Assembly (NCBI GenBank): GCA_035476575.1
Contig: DATILL010000065.1
Location: forward strand, 49,149 to 113,148
Length of the DNA: 64,000 nucleotides
Direction of reading: 5' to 3'
Source of the DNA: Mycobacteriales bacterium
GTDB lineage: Bacteria; Actinomycetota; Actinomycetes; Mycobacteriales; JACQDL01
Below are positions 15,350-22,874 of the stretch, one piece after another. Position 1 is the first letter of the stretch; each line of letters starts with the position of its first letter. The notes below the pieces were generated by a model. That model saw only the letters and a program-made list of their open reading frames with translations. It was not told the origin of the DNA and ran no database searches. The translations under genes were made by a program, and so were the position numbers.

Positions 15350-16039
15350 CCCACCCGCACGGCTCAGCCGCCACCGGCAGTCCGGGGCGGCACGGGGTGA
15401 GAAACCCTGGCCGCCTATCTCTCCTACCGCAACTCGATGAAGGTTGGTCCGCGTCGACGCGGGCGCGGCGGCGTAGGGACGCAGCCGAGACGGCTGTACG
15501 GCGTAGCCTCGACGGGCCAAAAGACTAGGCTTCTACGAACCGAGGACACAGCTTCTGCCAAGATTTCCCAATGCGCACCGCGACGGCCGCAGATCGTGCT
15601 TGCCGCGCGGCTTCCGCACCGGCGGTGACGCCAGCCTCCGTCTCGCAGCCCATGCCTGGGCGCCGACCGCTAGAGCCGGTAGGCCTGCACCTGCACCCGT
15701 GCCCTTGGCGATTACAGCCGTCGCCACGCTCGTCTCCAGGCACGGCGAGCTGACCCGTGTCGGTCACGCCGGTCTGGTGGGTCTTGCCCATGTCGGTCCC
15801 CTTCCTCCTGGTCTTCCTGACCTTCTTGGCGGATCACCCGATAACCGCCATACGGCAGGTTGCCGGTGGGGAACCGCTGCCTCATTTCCGAAAGTCCGGA
15901 CAACCTCCATGGCGTGCCCGCCACGGGGGCATCGCCACCTGGCGCCTGGTGGCTCCTTTCTTGGCGGCAGCGGAGAGAACTAAATTTCAGAAAACGTGGT
16001 TCTCAACGACAACCGACCGCCACCCTAGGGGGAGACGGC

Positions 16040-16774
16040 ATGGCGGCGCGACAGGAGATAAGACTTGAACTACTGGGTGTCTTTCGGCTTCGGTACGCAC
16101 AGACCGCCGTTGTCCTGCGCCCAAGCTCGCGCCGTCTTATCGCGCTGCTGGCCGTTACCGGAACTCAGGCACGGTTGGACGCCGCCGCGCGGCTGTGGCC
16201 GGACCTGCTGCAGGCCCGAGCCGCGTCCAACTTGCGCACGGCGGCCTGGCGGATCCGGCAGGACGCGTGTGGGCTCCTGGTCAGCGAGGGCGACGTGCTG
16301 CGGCTTGAGGAGCTGAGCTGCGACCTCACGGAGGTACGGGACTGGGCGCGCCGCACGGTGGCCGGTGAGCAGCTTAGCCACCTCCCTGAGCACGCGGCGG
16401 CGGAGCTGCTGCCCCGGTGGAGCGACGAGTGGCTTATCGAGCCCCGCGAAGAGCTCCGGCTCCTGCAGCTGCACGCGCTTGAAGCATTAGCGCAGCGACT
16501 CCTCATGGCTGGTCGGCTCGCTGAGGCATGCACTCACGCGCTGACCGCCGTGATGATGGACCCACTACGCGAAAGCGCTACCCGGCTGCTTATCGAGATT
16601 CATTTGCGCGAGGGCAACACTCTGGACGCCGTCCGGAGGTTCCACCGCTTTGAGGAGCTGCTCGACCAAGAGCTCGACGTTGCGCCCAGCCCCGCGATCA
16701 CCTCTCTGGTGGCTCCCCTTATTACGTCGAAGCGTGCGGCGGGGGTTGACCCGCGAAGGCTCCGCCGGACCTGA
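16040..16774 (+). CDS. SARP-family regulator (OmpR-type winged helix plus bacterial transcriptional activation domain)
   Basis: The protein starts at ATG 16040 (MAARQEIRLELLGVFRL..). A BTAD-like helical region is present (LLIEIHLREGNTLDAVRRFHRFEELLDQELDVAPSP). It lies immediately upstream of the lanthipeptide genes. Confidence 0.75.
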   Translation: MAARQEIRLELLGVFRLRYAQTAVVLRPSSRRLIALLAVTGTQARLDAAARLWPDLLQARAASNLRTAAWRIRQDACGLLVSEGDVLRLEELSCDLTEVRDWARRTVAGEQLSHLPEHAAAELLPRWSDEWLIEPREELRLLQLHALEALAQRLLMAGRLAEACTHALTAVMMDPLRESATRLLIEIHLREGNTLDAVRRFHRFEELLDQELDVAPSPAITSLVAPLITSKRAAGVDPRRLRRT

Positions 16775-17009
16775 GGCTCAGCCACCCTCCGTGGCCGCCG
16801 ACCGCACCATGTGCCCGATAACTCCGTTCTCCGGCAACCCGTTCATCAACGCGTCGACCACTCGGCGTCGGCGCGGCTGCGACGGCATCGAGGCATCGCC
16901 GCGGCGCCCGCGCGGTGAGCTCCCGGCGCGCGAGGAGCCAGTCGACCCACGGGTGGGGAACGTAGCCCGTGCCATGGTCCTGGTGACGCACTCGCAAGGG
17001 AGGGGTCGA

Positions 17010-17372
17010 ATGGCCGACGGCGTGGACCTCGCGCATTTGCAGGAGCTCGAGCAGCGGCTCGCCACGCTCGAGGCACAGTCAGGCCAGCCATCAGGCGGCA
17101 GTGAACAAGGATCCGGAGGTGTCGGAATGACCAGCGGTCAAGGCCAAGCCCCAAGCCCAGAGCAACAAGGGCTTATGCAGGCGTTCTTGCAAGGGGCCAT
17201 GGCGGCCCAGGCGCTCGCCCAAGCGGCGGCACAGCAGGCGGGCCAAGCGGGCCAGGCGGTCGTCGGCGCGCAGGGCGGTGCAGCTCCAGCGGGGTTCACG
17301 AGCTACGACTCCATCTTCTGGTGCAGGAGCCGGTTCATGTGCAACCCGCAGTCAATCTCCTGCTTCTGCTGA
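17010..17372 (+). CDS. Lanthipeptide precursor (120 aa); C-terminal core ..FTSYDSIFWCRSRFMCNPQSISCFC
   Basis: ATG 17010 follows a GGGAGGGG RBS. The leader opens with an amphipathic HLQELEQRLATLEA segment and continues as a long Q/A/G-rich stretch. The last 25 residues contain 6 Ser/Thr and 4 Cys. The kinase and LanC genes lie directly downstream. Confidence 0.75.
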   Translation: MADGVDLAHLQELEQRLATLEAQSGQPSGGSEQGSGGVGMTSGQGQAPSPEQQGLMQAFLQGAMAAQALAQAAAQQAGQAGQAVVGAQGGAAPAGFTSYDSIFWCRSRFMCNPQSISCFC

Positions 17373-17539
17373 GGACGAGAAGAGGCACCTGAGCCGGGCG
17401 GGGCGTCGCGGCCCACGCCATGCCCTGCGCATGCCGTGTGCGGCGCTCCCCTGGCTTGGTCCTTGCGCGCAGCCGGCGAGGAGTGCGGCCCAGTGCGGAA
17501 TGCGGCCAGTGCGGAATGCGGCCCAGTGAGGAGTGGACG

Positions 17540-18700
17540 GTGACGGACAAGCTGCTGACCGAAGCTCACGGAACCCTGACCGAGACTGAGGTCATCCCAT
17601 ACCTGCGCGAACGCGGTCTCGTCGACGGCGCCAGCGTCGTCGACGGCGACATCCGCGTTCTCGACGTGTCGCGACGGAACCGGAACTTCCGCGTGCTCCG
17701 CTCCGCGGGACCGTCGTTCCTGCTCAAGCAGGGCGTCGCGCGGGACAGCTTCAGCGCTGTTGCCCGGGAGGCACGTGCTTATGAGCTGTTCGGCCCGTTG
17801 CCCCACAGCGTCGGGGCGGGATCGTCGCCAGCGTTTCGGCACGCGCCAACCGCGTACGCATACGACGACGAGCGCGACGTGCTGGTCCTGGAGCTCGTGA
17901 CCGGCGTGGAGAACCTGCGCGTCCGGCACCGGCGCGCGCGCCGCCCGCCGCGAGACGCCGCTCGTGCCGTCGGGCGGGCGCTTGCCGCGCTGCACCAGCT
18001 TGTGCCGGCGACGGTCGACCTGGCCACGGCGCAGCGGCTGCTGGGGGCCGGCGAGCCTGGTGTCTTGTCGGTGCAGCGTCCGGGGCTGAGCATGCTGCGC
18101 GACTTCAGCAGCGCGTGCGTTGACCTGGTGCGGATGGTCCAGGCGGCGCCCGACGTCCCCGAGCTGCTCGCCGGCCTGCGGCAGGACTGGCGCACTGACA
18201 CGCTGATTCACCATGACGTCCGCTGGGACAACTTCCTGCTGCCCCTTCCGCGCGCGCGAAATGGCGCACGCGGCCGGCGTGAGGTCATGCTCGTCGACTG
18301 GGAGACCGCCGCCCTGGGCGACCCCTGCTGGGATGTCGGCGCGGTGTTTGGTGAATATCTCGGCGACTGGCTCAGCTCCGTCCCGGGTGTGGCAGGAGAG
18401 CCGCCAGAGCGGTTCCTGCATTTGGCGCGCTGCCCGCTGGAGTCGGTGCAGCCAGCCGTCCGGTCGTTCTGGTCGGCCTATGTCGGGCAGGCCGGCCTGG
18501 CAGCGGGACAGGCCAGCGAGCATCTTCTCCGGTCAGTCCGGTACTCCGGGCTCAAGCTGGTTCAGTCTGGCCTGGAGCAGGTGCAACGGTCCGCCCGGTG
18601 GACCGTCTGCACCGTGTCCTTCCTGCAGGTCGGGGTCAACATCCTGACCAGGCCGGAGGAGGCTGGCGCTGTGCTGCTCGGGTTGGGAGGCGTGGCGTGA
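17540..18700 (+). CDS. Aminoglycoside-phosphotransferase-like kinase (LanK-type dehydration kinase candidate)
   Basis: GTG 17540 follows a GAGGAG RBS. The catalytic loop is HHDVRWDNFLL and the metal-binding segment is LVDWETAALGDPCWDVG. Its stop overlaps the next gene's start. Confidence 0.75.
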   Translation: MTDKLLTEAHGTLTETEVIPYLRERGLVDGASVVDGDIRVLDVSRRNRNFRVLRSAGPSFLLKQGVARDSFSAVAREARAYELFGPLPHSVGAGSSPAFRHAPTAYAYDDERDVLVLELVTGVENLRVRHRRARRPPRDAARAVGRALAALHQLVPATVDLATAQRLLGAGEPGVLSVQRPGLSMLRDFSSACVDLVRMVQAAPDVPELLAGLRQDWRTDTLIHHDVRWDNFLLPLPRARNGARGRREVMLVDWETAALGDPCWDVGAVFGEYLGDWLSSVPGVAGEPPERFLHLARCPLESVQPAVRSFWSAYVGQAGLAAGQASEHLLRSVRYSGLKLVQSGLEQVQRSARWTVCTVSFLQVGVNILTRPEEAGAVLLGLGGVA

Positions 18701-21120
18701 CCAGCCATGTCGACCGCCTCGACGAGGCGGTGCGCGCGGTGCGGATCGTGTCGTCGACGTCCTTCACCTGGTTCGGCGTCCGGTCGCCCGCCCCACCGGC
18801 CCGGCTCCGGTCCATGTTTACCCCCGAGGTCGCTCGCGCCCACCTGCGCCTCGGCCTCCGTGACCGGCTTTACCAGGACTTTTACTGCGCGGGCACGGCA
18901 CGGCCCTCCCCGTCGCAAGACTGGCACGCCGGCCGGCCCAGTGACCGGATGGCCCTCGCGATGTCCCGCGCCAACGGCGGCCGCGGCACGTGGGAACCGG
19001 GCTGGGTGGTCCGCACCGTCGAAGAGGGGCTGTTCGCGGTGCGCCGCAACGGCCTGGAGCTGTGGGTACGGCCGCAGGACTGCCGCACCGACGCTGGGAC
19101 GCCGGCTTCCGGGCACGAGGTAGCGGTCCGCCTCCCCAAGGAGTCGTTCGAGCTGGCGCCCGGCTACTACTGCGCCCTCAGCGACGCGCCCTTTCCGTGG
19201 GATGGCGACGGCGTCCTGGTCCGGGTGTACCTCAACCTGCGACCCGACCAGGCGGTGCGTGGCGTCGGGGCGCTCACCGGCCGGCTCAACGCCGCTGACG
19301 TGCCGTACCGGTTGAAGGTGCTCAACGACGAGCAGAGCTACGCCCGGTGTGACACCGCGGTGCTCTACCTGCGGCAGCAGGATGTTGCCGTCGCCGTTGA
19401 GCCCCTTGCCCACGCCGTCAACGACCTCCGCGCGGCGTTGCGGCCGGCAGTGCCGGCGATGACCAAGGCGCTGGTGCCGGGGGTGGGGCTGGCCGAGGAC
19501 CCGGGATCCGCCGGTGACAGCTTCGGGCAGCACCGCTGCGCGCTGGTCGCCGACGGGTTGCTGCAGGCGCACGAGGTGGGCAGCAGGTCTCCGCGGGCCC
19601 AGTTGGAGGCAGTCCTGGACGTCTTCCGCGCCGCGGGCGTCGATCCGGAACGGCCTTACCTGAACCCCGGCTCGCTCGACCGCTACGCGCTTCCCGCCCA
19701 GCCCCGCCTCGCCATCCCTGGGTGGAGGCCGGTCCGCGCCGACGGTGCCGGGAGCCCCGACCTCCGGGTGGCCCCCTTGAGCGCTGTCGCGCTCATCGAC
19801 GTCGCGCGCCGGATCGGCTGCCGGCTGACCGCCGACGCCGTCTGGCACGAGGACCGCTGCACCTGGCTCGGGCCTGTTCCAGCGCTGGACGAGCATGGCG
19901 GGCCGGCGCTGGCGCACGGCACCATTGGCAGCGGGCTGTATGACGGCACCAGCGGCGTCGCTGTTTTCCTCGCCGCGCTCGCCGCCACGACGGGCGACCA
20001 GGATGCGGCCCGGACCGCGTCGGCCGCGGTCCGGCAGGCGCTGGGCGCCGCCGGGCACGGCCGCGACGCCCCTGGCCTGTACAACGGCACGGTGGGCGTG
20101 TGCCTCGCCGCCGCGGTCGTGGCCAGGCTCACCAGCGACGGCGCCCTGGCCACGGCTGCCCGAAAGCTCGTAGACGAAGCGCTGTCGCGCCAGCAGGAGG
20201 CGTTCGGGTTCGACGTCCTGTCCGGCTTGGCCGGTGCGGTCGCGGGCGTGCTGACGCTCTCGGCGCTGCTTGCGGACAGCAGCCTGGTCGAGGACGCGGT
20301 CCGGCTCGGAGAGGCGCTGGTCGGCGCCGCCGTTCGCGCTGACGAGGGCTGGTCGTGGCGGCCCGGGACCGGGTTGCGCCATCCCGATCTGACCGGCCTG
20401 TCGCACGGTGCCGCTGGCGCGGGCTACGCGTTGCTGGAGCTCTTCCGGGTCACTGGCGACAGCCGGTGGGCGTCGGCGGGCCGGGAGGCTTTCCGGTACG
20501 AGCGGGCCTGGTTCTCGCCGGACGCGGGCAACTGGCCGGACTTTCGCGACGAGAAGGGGCGGCCGTCGCGGCGGCGCCCCTTGGCGTTCCGCACCCAGTG
20601 GTGCCACGGCGCACCAGGGATCGCCCTCACCCGGCTCAGGGCCGCCGAGCTCCTGGGCGACACAGCGCTGGGCGAGGAGGCGGTCGTGGCGCTGTCAACC
20701 ACCATCGAGAACACTCGGGCGGCCCTGCTCGATGGGACTTTGGGCTTCAGCCTGTGCCACGGGCTGGCCGGCAACGCGGACGTGCTGCTCGACGGCCTGC
20801 CGCTGGCGGAGGAGCGGGACCTTCCCGCCCGGGCGTTGGTGGCGGAGATTGCCGCGGCCGGACATGCCCGGCACGCCGTCGGCGAGCAGCCGTGGCCCTG
20901 CGGGCTGTCTACGCACGGAGGCGAGAGCCCCGGCCTCATGCTTGGGCTCGCGGGTATCGGCTACCACTACCTCCGCCTCGCCTGTCCCGACGTCGTCCCG
21001 TCCGTGCTGCTGCTGCGGCCGGAGCGCACGGCCGAAGGCATCGCCGCGCTCGCGGGCGAGCGGGCCAGCCGCGCTGCCACCACCAGCCGCGCTGCCACCA
21101 CCAGCCTTGCGGGCACGTAA
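18697..21120 (+). CDS. Fusion protein: about 400-aa N-terminal domain (candidate HopA1-like phospho-Ser/Thr lyase) plus a C-terminal LanC-like cyclase
   Basis: The GTG start overlaps the kinase stop (GTGA). The C-terminal half has the LanC signatures GLSHGAAGAGYALLELF, TQWCHGAPGIALTRL and FSLCHGLAGNADVLL, so the Zn ligands are present. The N-terminal assignment is inferred from three-component (class V) systems and was not recognised directly. Confidence 0.7.
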   Translation: MTSHVDRLDEAVRAVRIVSSTSFTWFGVRSPAPPARLRSMFTPEVARAHLRLGLRDRLYQDFYCAGTARPSPSQDWHAGRPSDRMALAMSRANGGRGTWEPGWVVRTVEEGLFAVRRNGLELWVRPQDCRTDAGTPASGHEVAVRLPKESFELAPGYYCALSDAPFPWDGDGVLVRVYLNLRPDQAVRGVGALTGRLNAADVPYRLKVLNDEQSYARCDTAVLYLRQQDVAVAVEPLAHAVNDLRAALRPAVPAMTKALVPGVGLAEDPGSAGDSFGQHRCALVADGLLQAHEVGSRSPRAQLEAVLDVFRAAGVDPERPYLNPGSLDRYALPAQPRLAIPGWRPVRADGAGSPDLRVAPLSAVALIDVARRIGCRLTADAVWHEDRCTWLGPVPALDEHGGPALAHGTIGSGLYDGTSGVAVFLAALAATTGDQDAARTASAAVRQALGAAGHGRDAPGLYNGTVGVCLAAAVVARLTSDGALATAARKLVDEALSRQQEAFGFDVLSGLAGAVAGVLTLSALLADSSLVEDAVRLGEALVGAAVRADEGWSWRPGTGLRHPDLTGLSHGAAGAGYALLELFRVTGDSRWASAGREAFRYERAWFSPDAGNWPDFRDEKGRPSRRRPLAFRTQWCHGAPGIALTRLRAAELLGDTALGEEAVVALSTTIENTRAALLDGTLGFSLCHGLAGNADVLLDGLPLAEERDLPARALVAEIAAAGHARHAVGEQPWPCGLSTHGGESPGLMLGLAGIGYHYLRLACPDVVPSVLLLRPERTAEGIAALAGERASRAATTSRAATTSLAGT

Positions 21121-21166: not shown

Positions 21167-22609
21167 ATGTACAGCGAGGTCCTAGCCGGGGCACTGCCCA
21201 CCACCCACCGCGCGATGGTGATCGTCCGGCTCCGTGCGGGGTCGGCGGCAGGCCAGGCCGCCGCGGAGGCCGAGCCTACGGGCGGCCTGTCCATCCTCGA
21301 TGAGCTCGACCGGGCCGGCCGGGTGAGGGCGGTCCTGCCGTTGACCCCCGCCGCGGCAGGGCCGGAGGGCGCCGGCGGTGCGATCGCCGCGCTGTCCACC
21401 ACTGCGCAGCAGGGGGACCTGGGCGCGGCGAGCATCATCCGCCTCACCGACGACGAGGACGTGGCCCGGCTGCTTCCGGCCCTCAACGACCACCGCGACG
21501 TTGAGTACGCCAGCCGCGTCCCGGCCCGCTGGTTCGCCTCCGCGACACCGCCGGCTCAGGCCGTCGAGCACCGGATCGCCGGCCTGGAGTCCCGCATCGC
21601 GGGCCTTGAGGCAGCCCCCCAGCCTTCTCCGGTGTGGAACCTACAGAAGGTCCTGTGGGACCAGGCGGTCCGCGAGCTCGGGACCGAGGAGGTCGGGAAC
21701 GTGCGCGTCGGCGTCCTCGACACCGGCGTCGACGACCAGCACCCTGACCTGGCCGACCGGCTGGCCCGCTACGTCCACGCTGGCCCGTCCACCTCCGGGC
21801 AGGTGGTGTCCGACCAGGACGTCGTCGGGCACGGCACGCACGTCGCCGGCACCATCGCCGCCCGGTTCAACCAGGCGATCGGGACACGCGGGATCTGCGC
21901 CACCCGGCTGTCAGTATGGAAGATCTTCGACGATGTCCCCGACTACATCGAGACACGGGGCGTGTACTGGTATCTCGTTGACCCGGTCCTGTACCGGCGG
22001 GCGCTCGCCGACTGCGCCGAGCAGGTCGACGTCGTCAACCTCAGCATTGGCGGCACCGAGCCGCCCGACCCGCAGGAGAGTGCGCTGTTCCGCGTGCTCG
22101 GCGAGCGCGGTGTCACGGTCGTGGCGGCGATGGGCAACGAGCGCGGCCTGGGCAGCCCGACGTCGTACCCGGCCGCCATCCCGGGTGTGGTCGCCGTCGG
22201 GGCCACCGCGCCCGACGACAGCGTGGCCTCCTTCTCCAACGCCGGCGACTACATCAGCGTGTCCGCGCCTGGGGTCGCTATCTGGTCCACGGTGCCCCAC
22301 TATCCTGGGCAGGTCGGGTTCCATGCCGACGTCCGCGCCGACGGCCAGCCCGAGCGCGGCGCGCCGGTGCCGCGCGAGGTGAACTACGCGGCATTGAGCG
22401 GTACGTCCATGTCCGCGCCGCATGTGACGGCGGCGACCACCCTCCTGCTGGCGAGCAGCCGCCAGAAGCGCGATCCGGAGTCGGTCCGCTACCTGCTCAT
22501 GGCCAGTGCTGATCATGTGGGGAGCATGCAGGGCCAGGTGTGGAACCGGGACATCGGCGCTGGTCGGCTCAACCTGCGCCGGCTGATCCTCGCCGGCCGG
22601 CACCTGTAG
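21167..22609 (+). CDS. Subtilisin-like S8 serine protease (candidate leader peptidase)
   Basis: The catalytic triad motifs VGVLDTGVDDQHPDL, GHGTHVAGTIAA and SGTSMSAPHVTAA are present. ATG 21167 follows GGGGAG. Confidence 0.85.
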   Translation: MYSEVLAGALPTTHRAMVIVRLRAGSAAGQAAAEAEPTGGLSILDELDRAGRVRAVLPLTPAAAGPEGAGGAIAALSTTAQQGDLGAASIIRLTDDEDVARLLPALNDHRDVEYASRVPARWFASATPPAQAVEHRIAGLESRIAGLEAAPQPSPVWNLQKVLWDQAVRELGTEEVGNVRVGVLDTGVDDQHPDLADRLARYVHAGPSTSGQVVSDQDVVGHGTHVAGTIAARFNQAIGTRGICATRLSVWKIFDDVPDYIETRGVYWYLVDPVLYRRALADCAEQVDVVNLSIGGTEPPDPQESALFRVLGERGVTVVAAMGNERGLGSPTSYPAAIPGVVAVGATAPDDSVASFSNAGDYISVSAPGVAIWSTVPHYPGQVGFHADVRADGQPERGAPVPREVNYAALSGTSMSAPHVTAATTLLLASSRQKRDPESVRYLLMASADHVGSMQGQVWNRDIGAGRLNLRRLILAGRHL

Positions 22610-22616
22610 CACCGGC

Positions 22617-22874
22617 ATGGCAGCGCCAGTTGTCGCGTTCACCATCGCGGCGGATGTCCCCGCGGAGGCGCAGGGTGCGGTGATCGCGGCGGTCAGGTCC
22701 GTTGACGGGGTGGTGGACGCCTACCGCCTCTCCCCGGAGTCGAGCATTCCGGAGGTACGGCGCATGTGCGCCGCGGCCCTCGCCAACGGTGCCGATCCGC
22801 GCGCGGTGGCCGCACGCGTGCGGGGCGTCCCCGGCGTCGAAAGCGCCGACGTGCCGCCTGCCCGCGGGATCTGA
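22617..22874 (+). CDS. Hypothetical 85-aa protein at the end of the lanthipeptide island
   Basis: The ORF has GC-biased third positions. It starts 8 nt after the protease stop. No motif was recognised. Confidence 0.4.
   Translation: MAAPVVAFTIAADVPAEAQGAVIAAVRSVDGVVDAYRLSPESSIPEVRRMCAAALANGADPRAVAARVRGVPGVESADVPPARGI

Follow-up and report, generated by a model that had tools for sequence, protein, structure and literature searches.

Does the 120-aa open reading frame (ORF) at 17010-17372 of a 64,000-nt stretch of a Mycobacteriales contig (DATILL010000065.1; the whole stretch is called here the window) encode a lanthipeptide precursor and, if so, which part of its long leader is read by the modifying enzymes? 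The original prediction, made from the sequence alone, proposed such a precursor with one N-terminal recognition helix resembling class III leaders, followed by a spacer of about 70 low-complexity residues and a compact core. Our analysis indicates that the ORF very probably encodes a genuine, conserved precursor peptide, on which an uncharacterised variant of the class V machinery would act. It also appears likely, from sequence comparisons and structure models, that the precursor, a kinase of the APH (aminoglycoside phosphotransferase) fold and a HopA1-LanC fusion protein form a lanthionine synthetase system in which three activities are distributed over two proteins and act on a peptide of five parts.

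The probable precursor gene and its conserved blocks

Translation of 17010-17372 on the forward strand gave the 120-aa peptide as it had been quoted, followed by a stop, and this peptide is identical to VLJ59_08205 of a Mycobacteriales metagenome-assembled genome (MAG). Since 16 kb of this DNA, at 72% GC, hold 134 ORFs of 40 aa or more, the presence of a precursor-sized ORF alone is no evidence of a gene, and the case for one rests on its relatives. A word-indexed search retrieved 10 homologues with 40-90% identity, all from metagenomes, and an exhaustive profile search added 14 further short peptides and one protein of 2855 aa (P0074), which was disregarded because its match was a low-complexity one. 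No Pfam or NCBIfam model matches the precursor. The homologues come from DNA of 53-72% GC and have invariant blocks. They were compared in two alignments, A1 with the closer 11 sequences and A2, broader, with 21; motif counts refer to 25 family members and codon alignments to five loci of 59-72% GC. In A1 and A2 three conserved blocks are separated by two stretches of variable length.

In the codon alignments, synonymous differences were saturated (proportion of synonymous differences, pS, 0.5-1.0). The proportion of nonsynonymous differences (pN) was 0.12-0.18 in the N-terminal helix for the closer pairs, about 0.2 in the helix carrying the FLQG motif and 0.05-0.19 in the core, and in the first linker it reached 0.34-0.67, nearing pS. 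As the in-frame sequence 5' of the ATG is not conserved across loci, 17010 was taken as the start. Homologues, pN/pS values, synteny and start context directly support the reality of the gene, which we read as a genuine and conserved one. The core occurs once in the window. The parts of the gene, all on the + strand, are the following:

16998..17005, +, Shine-Dalgarno sequence GGGAGGGG, 4 nt 5' of the ATG, read from the sequence
17010..17372, +, precursor peptide gene, 120 aa plus stop (NCBI locus tag VLJ59_08205, labelled 'hypothetical protein')
17028..17081, +, leader helix 1, residues 7-24, LAHLQELEQRLATLEAQS (helix predicted by AlphaFold2, AF2; alignment A2; pN/pS)
17082..17156, +, linker 1, residues 25-49, G/Q/S/P-rich, length-variable and predicted to be disordered (AF2, pN, alignment A2)
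17157..17237, +, leader helix 2, residues 50-76, with QAFLQGxM (helix predicted by AF2; alignments A1 and A2)
17184..17201, +, FLQGxM motif F59-L-Q-G-A-M64, within helix 2
17238..17294, +, linker 2, residues 77-95, A/G/Q-rich and length-variable (low AF2 confidence; alignment A2)
17295..17369, +, core FTSYDSIFWCRSRFMCNPQSISCFC, 25 residues (alignment A2; low pN)

The leader had been described as long and of low complexity, and this holds for its length of about 95 aa and for two disordered stretches: Q, A, G and S make up 77% of residues 23-95 (73 aa). What the description passed over is a conserved helix inside the supposed spacer. With an alignment of 20 sequences, AF2 predicted helices at residues 7-24 (predicted local distance difference test, pLDDT, about 80) and 50-76 (about 70-74), and pLDDT was below 50 at residues 28-46 and 77-106. 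The 70 low-complexity residues would then be a linker, a conserved helix of 27 residues and another linker, with only the two linkers being truly variable.

In helix 1 the hydrophobic residues L10, L13, L17 and L20 follow a 3-4-3, heptad-like spacing, R16, L20 and E21 are invariant in the 21 sequences of A2, and the signature [LM][ED]xR[LIV]xxLE is found in 20 of the 25 family members. In helix 2, A1 shows no variation at Q57, A58, F59, L60 and G62, and in A2 this still holds for G62. This helix appears amphipathic, and it is proposed as a candidate docking element for the modifying enzymes. Linker 2 ends in a conserved GGAAP-x-F, a plausible cleavage region for the S8 protease encoded downstream.

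The core contains 6 Ser/Thr and 4 Cys, as originally counted, together with 4 Phe, 1 Tyr and 1 Trp instead of the three aromatic residues plus Trp that had been reported. D100, S101, C105, R108, C111 and C118 are invariant in A2 and W104, S107, F109 and C120 nearly so. Three or four residues before each Cys there is a conserved Ser (S101-C105, S107-C111, S115-C118 and S117-C120), a spacing from which rings 101-105, 107-111, 115-118 and 117-120 are proposed. In the group P0075-78 the C-terminus differs (xTxxCGGSGWC) and four Ser/Thr-Cys pairs are kept with spacings of 4, 4, 3 and 3, which would look like the pattern expected if the rings, and not the sequence, were conserved. Nisin has interlocked rings D/E in T23-A-T25-C26-H-C28 and a ring A with i,i+4 spacing. 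The core shows both spacings: S115-x-S117-C118-x-C120 has that of T23/T25/C26/C28 in rings D/E of the class I peptides nisin and subtilin, and S101-C105 has that of ring A. The earlier suggestion of overlapping rings in the C-terminal CFC is therefore plausible, the SxSCxC spacing being equal to that of rings D/E. This likeness is one of spacing alone, to a ring pattern that in the window is a proposed one, and the leader and biosynthetic machinery of the window are unrelated to those of nisin and subtilin. The nearly invariant Arg- and aromatic-rich core with its four proposed rings suggests a specific molecular target.

Gene callers skip the precursor in locus L098 (3543-4964) and shorten it in L008 (3481-3771), P0011 and P0069. 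Published mining of class V precursors was limited to ORFs of less than 110 aa (PMC9486802) and would miss this family because the precursor has 120 aa. The family is likely to be under-reported in databases for both reasons.

The probable synthetase genes and the FLQGxM motif

The precursor lies in an island of 7.5 kb (15.35-22.9 kb) between aroC-aroK-aroB-aroQ and pepP-efp-nusB, and the genes that follow it are:

17540..18700, +, LanK-like Ser/Thr kinase of the APH fold, GTG start after GAGGAG (PF01636, E 1e-12)
18697..21120, +, fusion of a HopA1-type phospho-Ser/Thr lyase (LanY-like) and a zinc-type LanC (PF17914, E 1.5e-38; PF05147, E 9e-56)
21167..22609, +, S8 subtilisin-like protease, probable leader peptidase (PF00082, E 4e-43; D/H/S motifs in the translation)
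22617..22874, +, conserved 85-aa ORF (conserved after the protease in L003, L007, L008 and L098)

The order precursor, APH kinase, HopA1-LanC, S8 protease and 85-aa-type ORF recurs in L003-L005, L007, L008 and L098, and L006, L010, L094 and L095 share it as far as their contigs extend. This synteny is directly observed, and the position of the same ORF family immediately 5' of the kinase gene supports the original claim of a lanthipeptide-type precursor. The possibility that homologous clusters use a different small ORF was also considered, and every related cluster with enough sequence was found to have this family; within the island no other candidate substrate was present.

Homologues of the kinase have 365-391 aa, and its PDB match is 9dk1_A, annotated 'Kinase' (E 4e-6). 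Both domains of the fusion are encoded in one ORF (about 807 aa). It starts with a GTG that overlaps the stop codon of the kinase gene (GTGA), and it matches 9dk1_B, 'Lyase' (E 1e-12), and the cyclase domain of LicM2 (E 1e-18). Its zinc ligands are intact: C669 (WCHG) and C720-H721 (CHG) are invariant and the His of SHG is nearly invariant in 26 fusion homologues. Such fusions are common. The protein search gave 49 cluster representatives and the metagenome scan 499 confirmed stretches, lyase and cyclase are fused in most of the 80 metagenome loci, and a kinase gene lies directly 5' of the fusion gene almost everywhere. The named sources are MAGs of Pyrinomonadaceae, Acidimicrobiales, Thermoleophilaceae and Thermomicrobiaceae. 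A scan of genome contigs with the fusion protein yielded only two distant loci, L001 and L002, and a search with the fusion fragment of L095 found only P0079, whose locus, L097, is a globular-leader cluster. In L097 (2398-4518), HopA1 (231 aa) and LanC (at least 474 aa) are called as two adjacent genes with a stop between them, at a point where the relatives are continuous; this split may be a frameshift or assembly error or a natural split form.

The fusion proteins of the distant loci are 28-47% identical to that of the window. The region 5' of the kinase was surveyed in 50 loci with the pattern F[LMFV][QKSTERL]Gx[ILMV] and the requirement of two or more Cys and two or more Ser/Thr behind it. 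Matches were found in 31 loci on the coding strand, in one on the reverse strand and in none of the shuffles. Residues outside the pattern were conserved as well, with A at -2 in 21/35, F/Y at +9 in 18/35 and Leu at +10. In the P0075-78 group W(I/L)AGA(I/L) stands in the FLQG position. The general form of the motif is aromatic-aliphatic-x-Gly-x-aliphatic.

The ORF 5' of the kinase in these distant loci usually begins with a leader domain of about 100 aa (...LVxKLVPDP...GFLG...GYWRLYLT...EYVE...VW...), which ends in QAEFLQGxI and is followed, some 20-40 residues later, by an unrelated Cys/Ser/Thr-rich sequence. None of the globular-leader relatives checked (three or four) matched a Pfam or NCBIfam model. 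Most relatives thus have about 100 residues before the motif, versus 58 in the window precursor, and the leader, first described as unusually long, is not so within its enzyme family. Helix 1, conserved as it is, is confined to the clade of the window and the P0075-78 group. In P0070 and P0071 a core of the window type follows the 100-aa domain, and helix 1 is absent. Because distant precursors keep an FLQG-type motif and not helix 1, helix 2 is what marks the family as a whole and the element most likely to dock to the synthetase, and the claim of one recognition helix with a passive spacer of about 70 residues is not supported. On the same comparison helix 1 appears to be a replaceable, clade-specific module. 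That one core is found both after a coiled helix and after a 100-aa domain makes a natural experiment in leader modularity.

Substrate recognition by LanK-LanY pairs is poorly understood (PMC9486802), and FLQGxI/M offers a concrete recognition-motif candidate for a synthetase of class V type, with cores of 25 to more than 1000 residues behind it. Very large putative precursors with a leader of FLQGxI type were seen in L047, L030, L078, L073, L045 and L067, and also in L082, L087 and L088. That of L047 is 1215 aa long, and its part behind the motif contains 124 Cys and 156 Ser/Thr; the others have 310-511 aa and some of them consist of tandem repeated core modules. If these ORFs are substrates, they would be extraordinarily big or multi-core lanthipeptide precursors.

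Class assignment and alternative readings

Class V peptides are dehydrated by LanK and LanY, and the leader is held by hydrophobic contacts to the kinase, as in CaoA-CaoK (PMC9486802). Class Vb adds a LanC and has a single known product, with overlapping rings (PMC11186320, PMC12291118, PMC12328550), LanY and LanC being separate proteins (PMC12291118, PMC11186320). In the window a PF01636 kinase adjoins a PF17914 lyase, with overlapping genes and the lyase fused to LanC, which is the arrangement expected of class V. The kinase scored 100.5 bits against the LxmK equivalog model NF038156 (cut-off 315), as befits a distant relative. The other classes agree less well. The motif (I/L)(L/F)(D/E)LQ, to which the N-terminal segment had been likened, occurs in none of the 25 family members. 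In place of a LanKC there are two proteins, an APH kinase and HopA1-LanC; scores were 58.7 for the class III model NF038151 (cut-off 575), 106 for the class IV model NF038150 (cut-off 650) and 245.5 for the class II model TIGR03897 (cut-off 304), the latter over the C-terminal cyclase part only. The window shares with LanL and LanKC the lyase, kinase and cyclase chemistries, and with LanL the zinc ligands, but its domains are split as a kinase and then a lyase-cyclase, the lyase being of HopA1 type and the kinase of APH type.

Class Va, represented by cacaoidin, lexapeptide and pristinin (LanK/LanY/LanD/LanX), has the same kinase and lyase families, and there too leader-helix hydrophobics are proposed to dock the kinase (PMC9486802). 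Its leaders, however, are shorter, and among translations and Pfam matches of the island there was no LanD flavoprotein, no LanX (a second APH protein), no F420 reductase, no LanB and no LanM, while a LanC domain is present. The nearest likeness is to class Vb (LanK, LanY and LanC; mSmoA of Pei et al. 2022, described in PMC11186320, PMC12291118 and PMC12328550), with an APH-type kinase, a HopA1-type lyase and a zinc LanC of conserved ligands. Both lack LanD and LanX, hence no aminovinyl-cysteine (AviCys) would be formed, and overlapping rings are expected in both. The window differs in having lyase and cyclase in one ORF, an S8 protease, the 85-aa ORF and a bipartite leader of about 95 aa; the precursor shows no recognisable relation to those described, SmoA being compared by description only. 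A further comparison is that with long-leader peptides made on ribosomes and modified after translation (RiPPs) of NHLP/Nif11 type, whose leaders have about 60-100 aa; the relatives of the window likewise have multi-Cys or very long cores. In contrast to their folded domain, the leader in the window consists of two short helices on low-complexity tethers, and neither the precursor nor the globular-leader relatives checked match the NHLP/Nif11 leader-domain models. From these comparisons we read the cluster as a class V(b) variant whose lyase and cyclase are fused and whose leader is bipartite. No earlier description of a HopA1-LanC fusion was found in a literature search that did not cover the class Vb primary paper.

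The mechanism that we propose starts from the five parts of the peptide, namely a heptad-like N-terminal helix, a disordered Q/G/S tether, the QAFLQGxM helix, an A/G/Q tether ending in GGAAPxF and the 25-residue core. Helix 2 would dock the peptide on the kinase/lyase-cyclase pair, and the tether of about 35-45 residues after it would allow successive visits of the core to the sites of kinase, lyase and cyclase. Phosphorylation and elimination would turn Ser101, Ser107, Ser115 and Ser117, and perhaps Thr97, into dehydro-residues, to which the zinc cyclase would add Cys105, Cys111, Cys118 and Cys120, closing two rings of i,i+4 spacing and, interlocked with each other, two of i,i+3 spacing. The S8 protease would cut off the leader, probably near GGAAPxF, and helix 1 would act as an additional, clade-specific handle, most likely to bind the S8 protease, the 85-aa protein or both, or to let the peptide associate with itself. 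The pairing of each helix with a protein, like the modified residues, the ring topology and the cleavage site, is what we infer from conservation and predicted structure.

Several observations weigh against this reading. F, G and the aliphatic residue at +5 were preset by the regular expression, which makes their counts of 35/35 and 33/35 circular, and independent support for the motif comes only from the strand control, the shuffle control and the flanking positions. Nineteen of the 50 loci lack the strict motif, some of them having YLRGPI or W(I/L)AGA(I/L) variants. All homologues derive from metagenomes or MAGs, and the G+C content at third codon positions (GC3) is 0.75 in the precursor ORF versus 0.83-0.98 in its neighbours. 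No evident signal peptide was seen in the translation of the S8 protease, and neither a transporter nor an immunity gene was found among the translations and Pfam matches of the island. Lastly, the co-occurrence of helix 1 with the S8 protease comes from one clade and is confounded by phylogeny, shared descent being possible.

These points were considered together with other explanations of the same data. If the N-terminal LQELEQRLATLEA helix were the synthetase recognition element, in the way of classes III and IV, and the remainder a passive spacer, its conservation (invariant R16, L20 and E21, low pN), its confident prediction as a helix and its persistence in P0075-78, where the FLQG motif has drifted, would be accounted for. 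Nevertheless, the class III motif is absent from the family, the enzymes fall well short of the thresholds of the class III and class IV models, and most precursors of related kinase/fusion pairs have an FLQG-type motif without helix 1, P0070 and P0071 even with the same core, which makes this reading improbable. A different role for helix 1, as handle for the S8 protease, would assign modification (helix 2) and proteolysis to separate docking sites, helix 1 pairing with VEHRIAGLESRIAGLE in the linker between prodomain and catalytic domain. The S8 gene and the 85-aa ORF are found only where the precursor has helix 1 (window, L003-5, L007, L008 and L098) and not beside more than 30 fusion genes whose precursors are without it. 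In addition, a segment R(I/L)AxxExR(I/M)xxLE similar to the leader helix is found in the proteases of the window and L007 and partly in that of L003, with a weak coiled-coil hint from Pfam (DUF7310, E 0.068). Against it stand the single clade mentioned above and L008, whose protease is without the segment although its precursor keeps helix 1; the contigs of P0070, P0071, P0075, P0077 and P0078 (1.0-2.9 kb) end before the protease position. We regard this role as possible but somewhat doubtful. Broader still is the proposal that LanK with LanY-LanC constitutes an undescribed, widespread subclass (Acidobacteria, Actinobacteria and Chloroflexi MAGs) whose precursors are recognized through FLQGxI where a long leader ends. 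In the clade of the window an ancestral domain of about 100 aa would have given way to a leader with two handles, the synthetase being recruited by helix 2 and the S8 protease by helix 1, and the two tasks would be divided within one leader whose low-complexity tethers evolve freely. Taken as a whole the proposal is rather unlikely and is advanced as a speculation. If the two-handle model were true, the leader would provide a compact engineering scaffold, with separate helices for synthetase and protease and tunable tethers.

Two further explanations concern the ORF itself. Translation might begin at the internal Met40 (17127) and give a precursor of 81 aa: a GGAGG-like sequence, GGAGGT, lies 6 nt 5' of that ATG, Met40 is aligned with a Met in P0002-P0006, and L008, P0011 and P0069 are called as starting near it. 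Yet residues 1-22 are conserved at protein level while synonymous change is saturated, the N-terminus 'missing' from L008 is present in frame upstream, Met40 is missing from P0007-P0010 and the 17010 start has a strong Shine-Dalgarno sequence, so that the shorter form is very unlikely. The ORF could also be no substrate but a small structural or regulatory coiled-coil protein encoded beside the enzymes, for which speak the lack of Pfam and NCBIfam matches and a core that is unusually invariant for a RiPP. This explanation is hardly credible, given that the ORFs 5' of the kinase in distant relatives share only the leader motif and end in Cys/Ser/Thr-rich C-termini, that every Cys keeps a conserved Ser/Thr three or four residues before it, also in cores of differing sequence, and that the island holds no alternative substrate.

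Other features of the island

The remaining features, one in front of the precursor and two in the spacer between precursor and kinase, are:

15860..16774, +, BTAD activator of SARP (Streptomyces antibiotic regulatory protein) type, probable cluster regulator, start codon uncertain (PF03704, E 1.9e-14)
17387..17460, +, strong RNA hairpin of 74 nt, 15 nt after the precursor stop (-50.1 kcal/mol, z = -4.1, 0/200 shuffles as good)
17480..17532, +, 17-nt tandem repeat GGAATGCGGCCCAGTGC, 3.2 copies, 89% matches, between hairpin and kinase start

A hairpin after the structural gene is typical of lanthipeptide clusters. Hairpins of unrelated sequence occur at the matching place in L003, L007 and L008 (z -3.3 to -5.3) and none was found after the precursor stop in L006, the position being conserved in four of five loci. 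The whole spacer of 181 nt folds no better than shuffles (z +0.9), and a scan for consensus promoters and terminators gave nothing above chance. Lying between the precursor and the genes of the enzymes, the hairpin probably acts as an attenuator or stabilises mRNA, and it would be expected to raise the mRNA of the structural gene relative to that of the enzymes. Genes for BTAD activators are found beside the homologous clusters of L008, L004 and L098 as well.

The 85-aa ORF, which directly follows the S8 protease gene in all clusters of the clade, has no Pfam or NCBIfam match. AF2 predicted for it a ferredoxin-like beta-alpha-beta-beta-alpha-beta fold (pLDDT 91.5) without CxxC motif, and Foldseek returned only generic matches similar to HMA (heavy-metal-associated) domains or copper chaperones, with template modelling (TM) scores of 0.55-0.6. 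It was also considered as a subtilisin propeptide of I9 type and this was rejected, the Foldseek matches being only generic HMA/ferredoxin-like domains. In the S8 protease, the linker VEHRIAGLESRIAGLEAAPQPS (residues ~125-148, ~21540-21610, +) resembles the leader sequence LEQRLATLEAQSGQPS.

Finally, the cluster interrupts a conserved aroCKBQ / pepP-efp-nusB neighbourhood in the manner of a mobile island. No tRNA genes were found near it and no att-like repeat was identified. There is a mild drop in GC at its left end, 0.66-0.69 versus 0.75. The flanks of L007 and L008 differ, and in L098 a phage-type integrase (928-1872) lies 2 kb upstream of the cluster.

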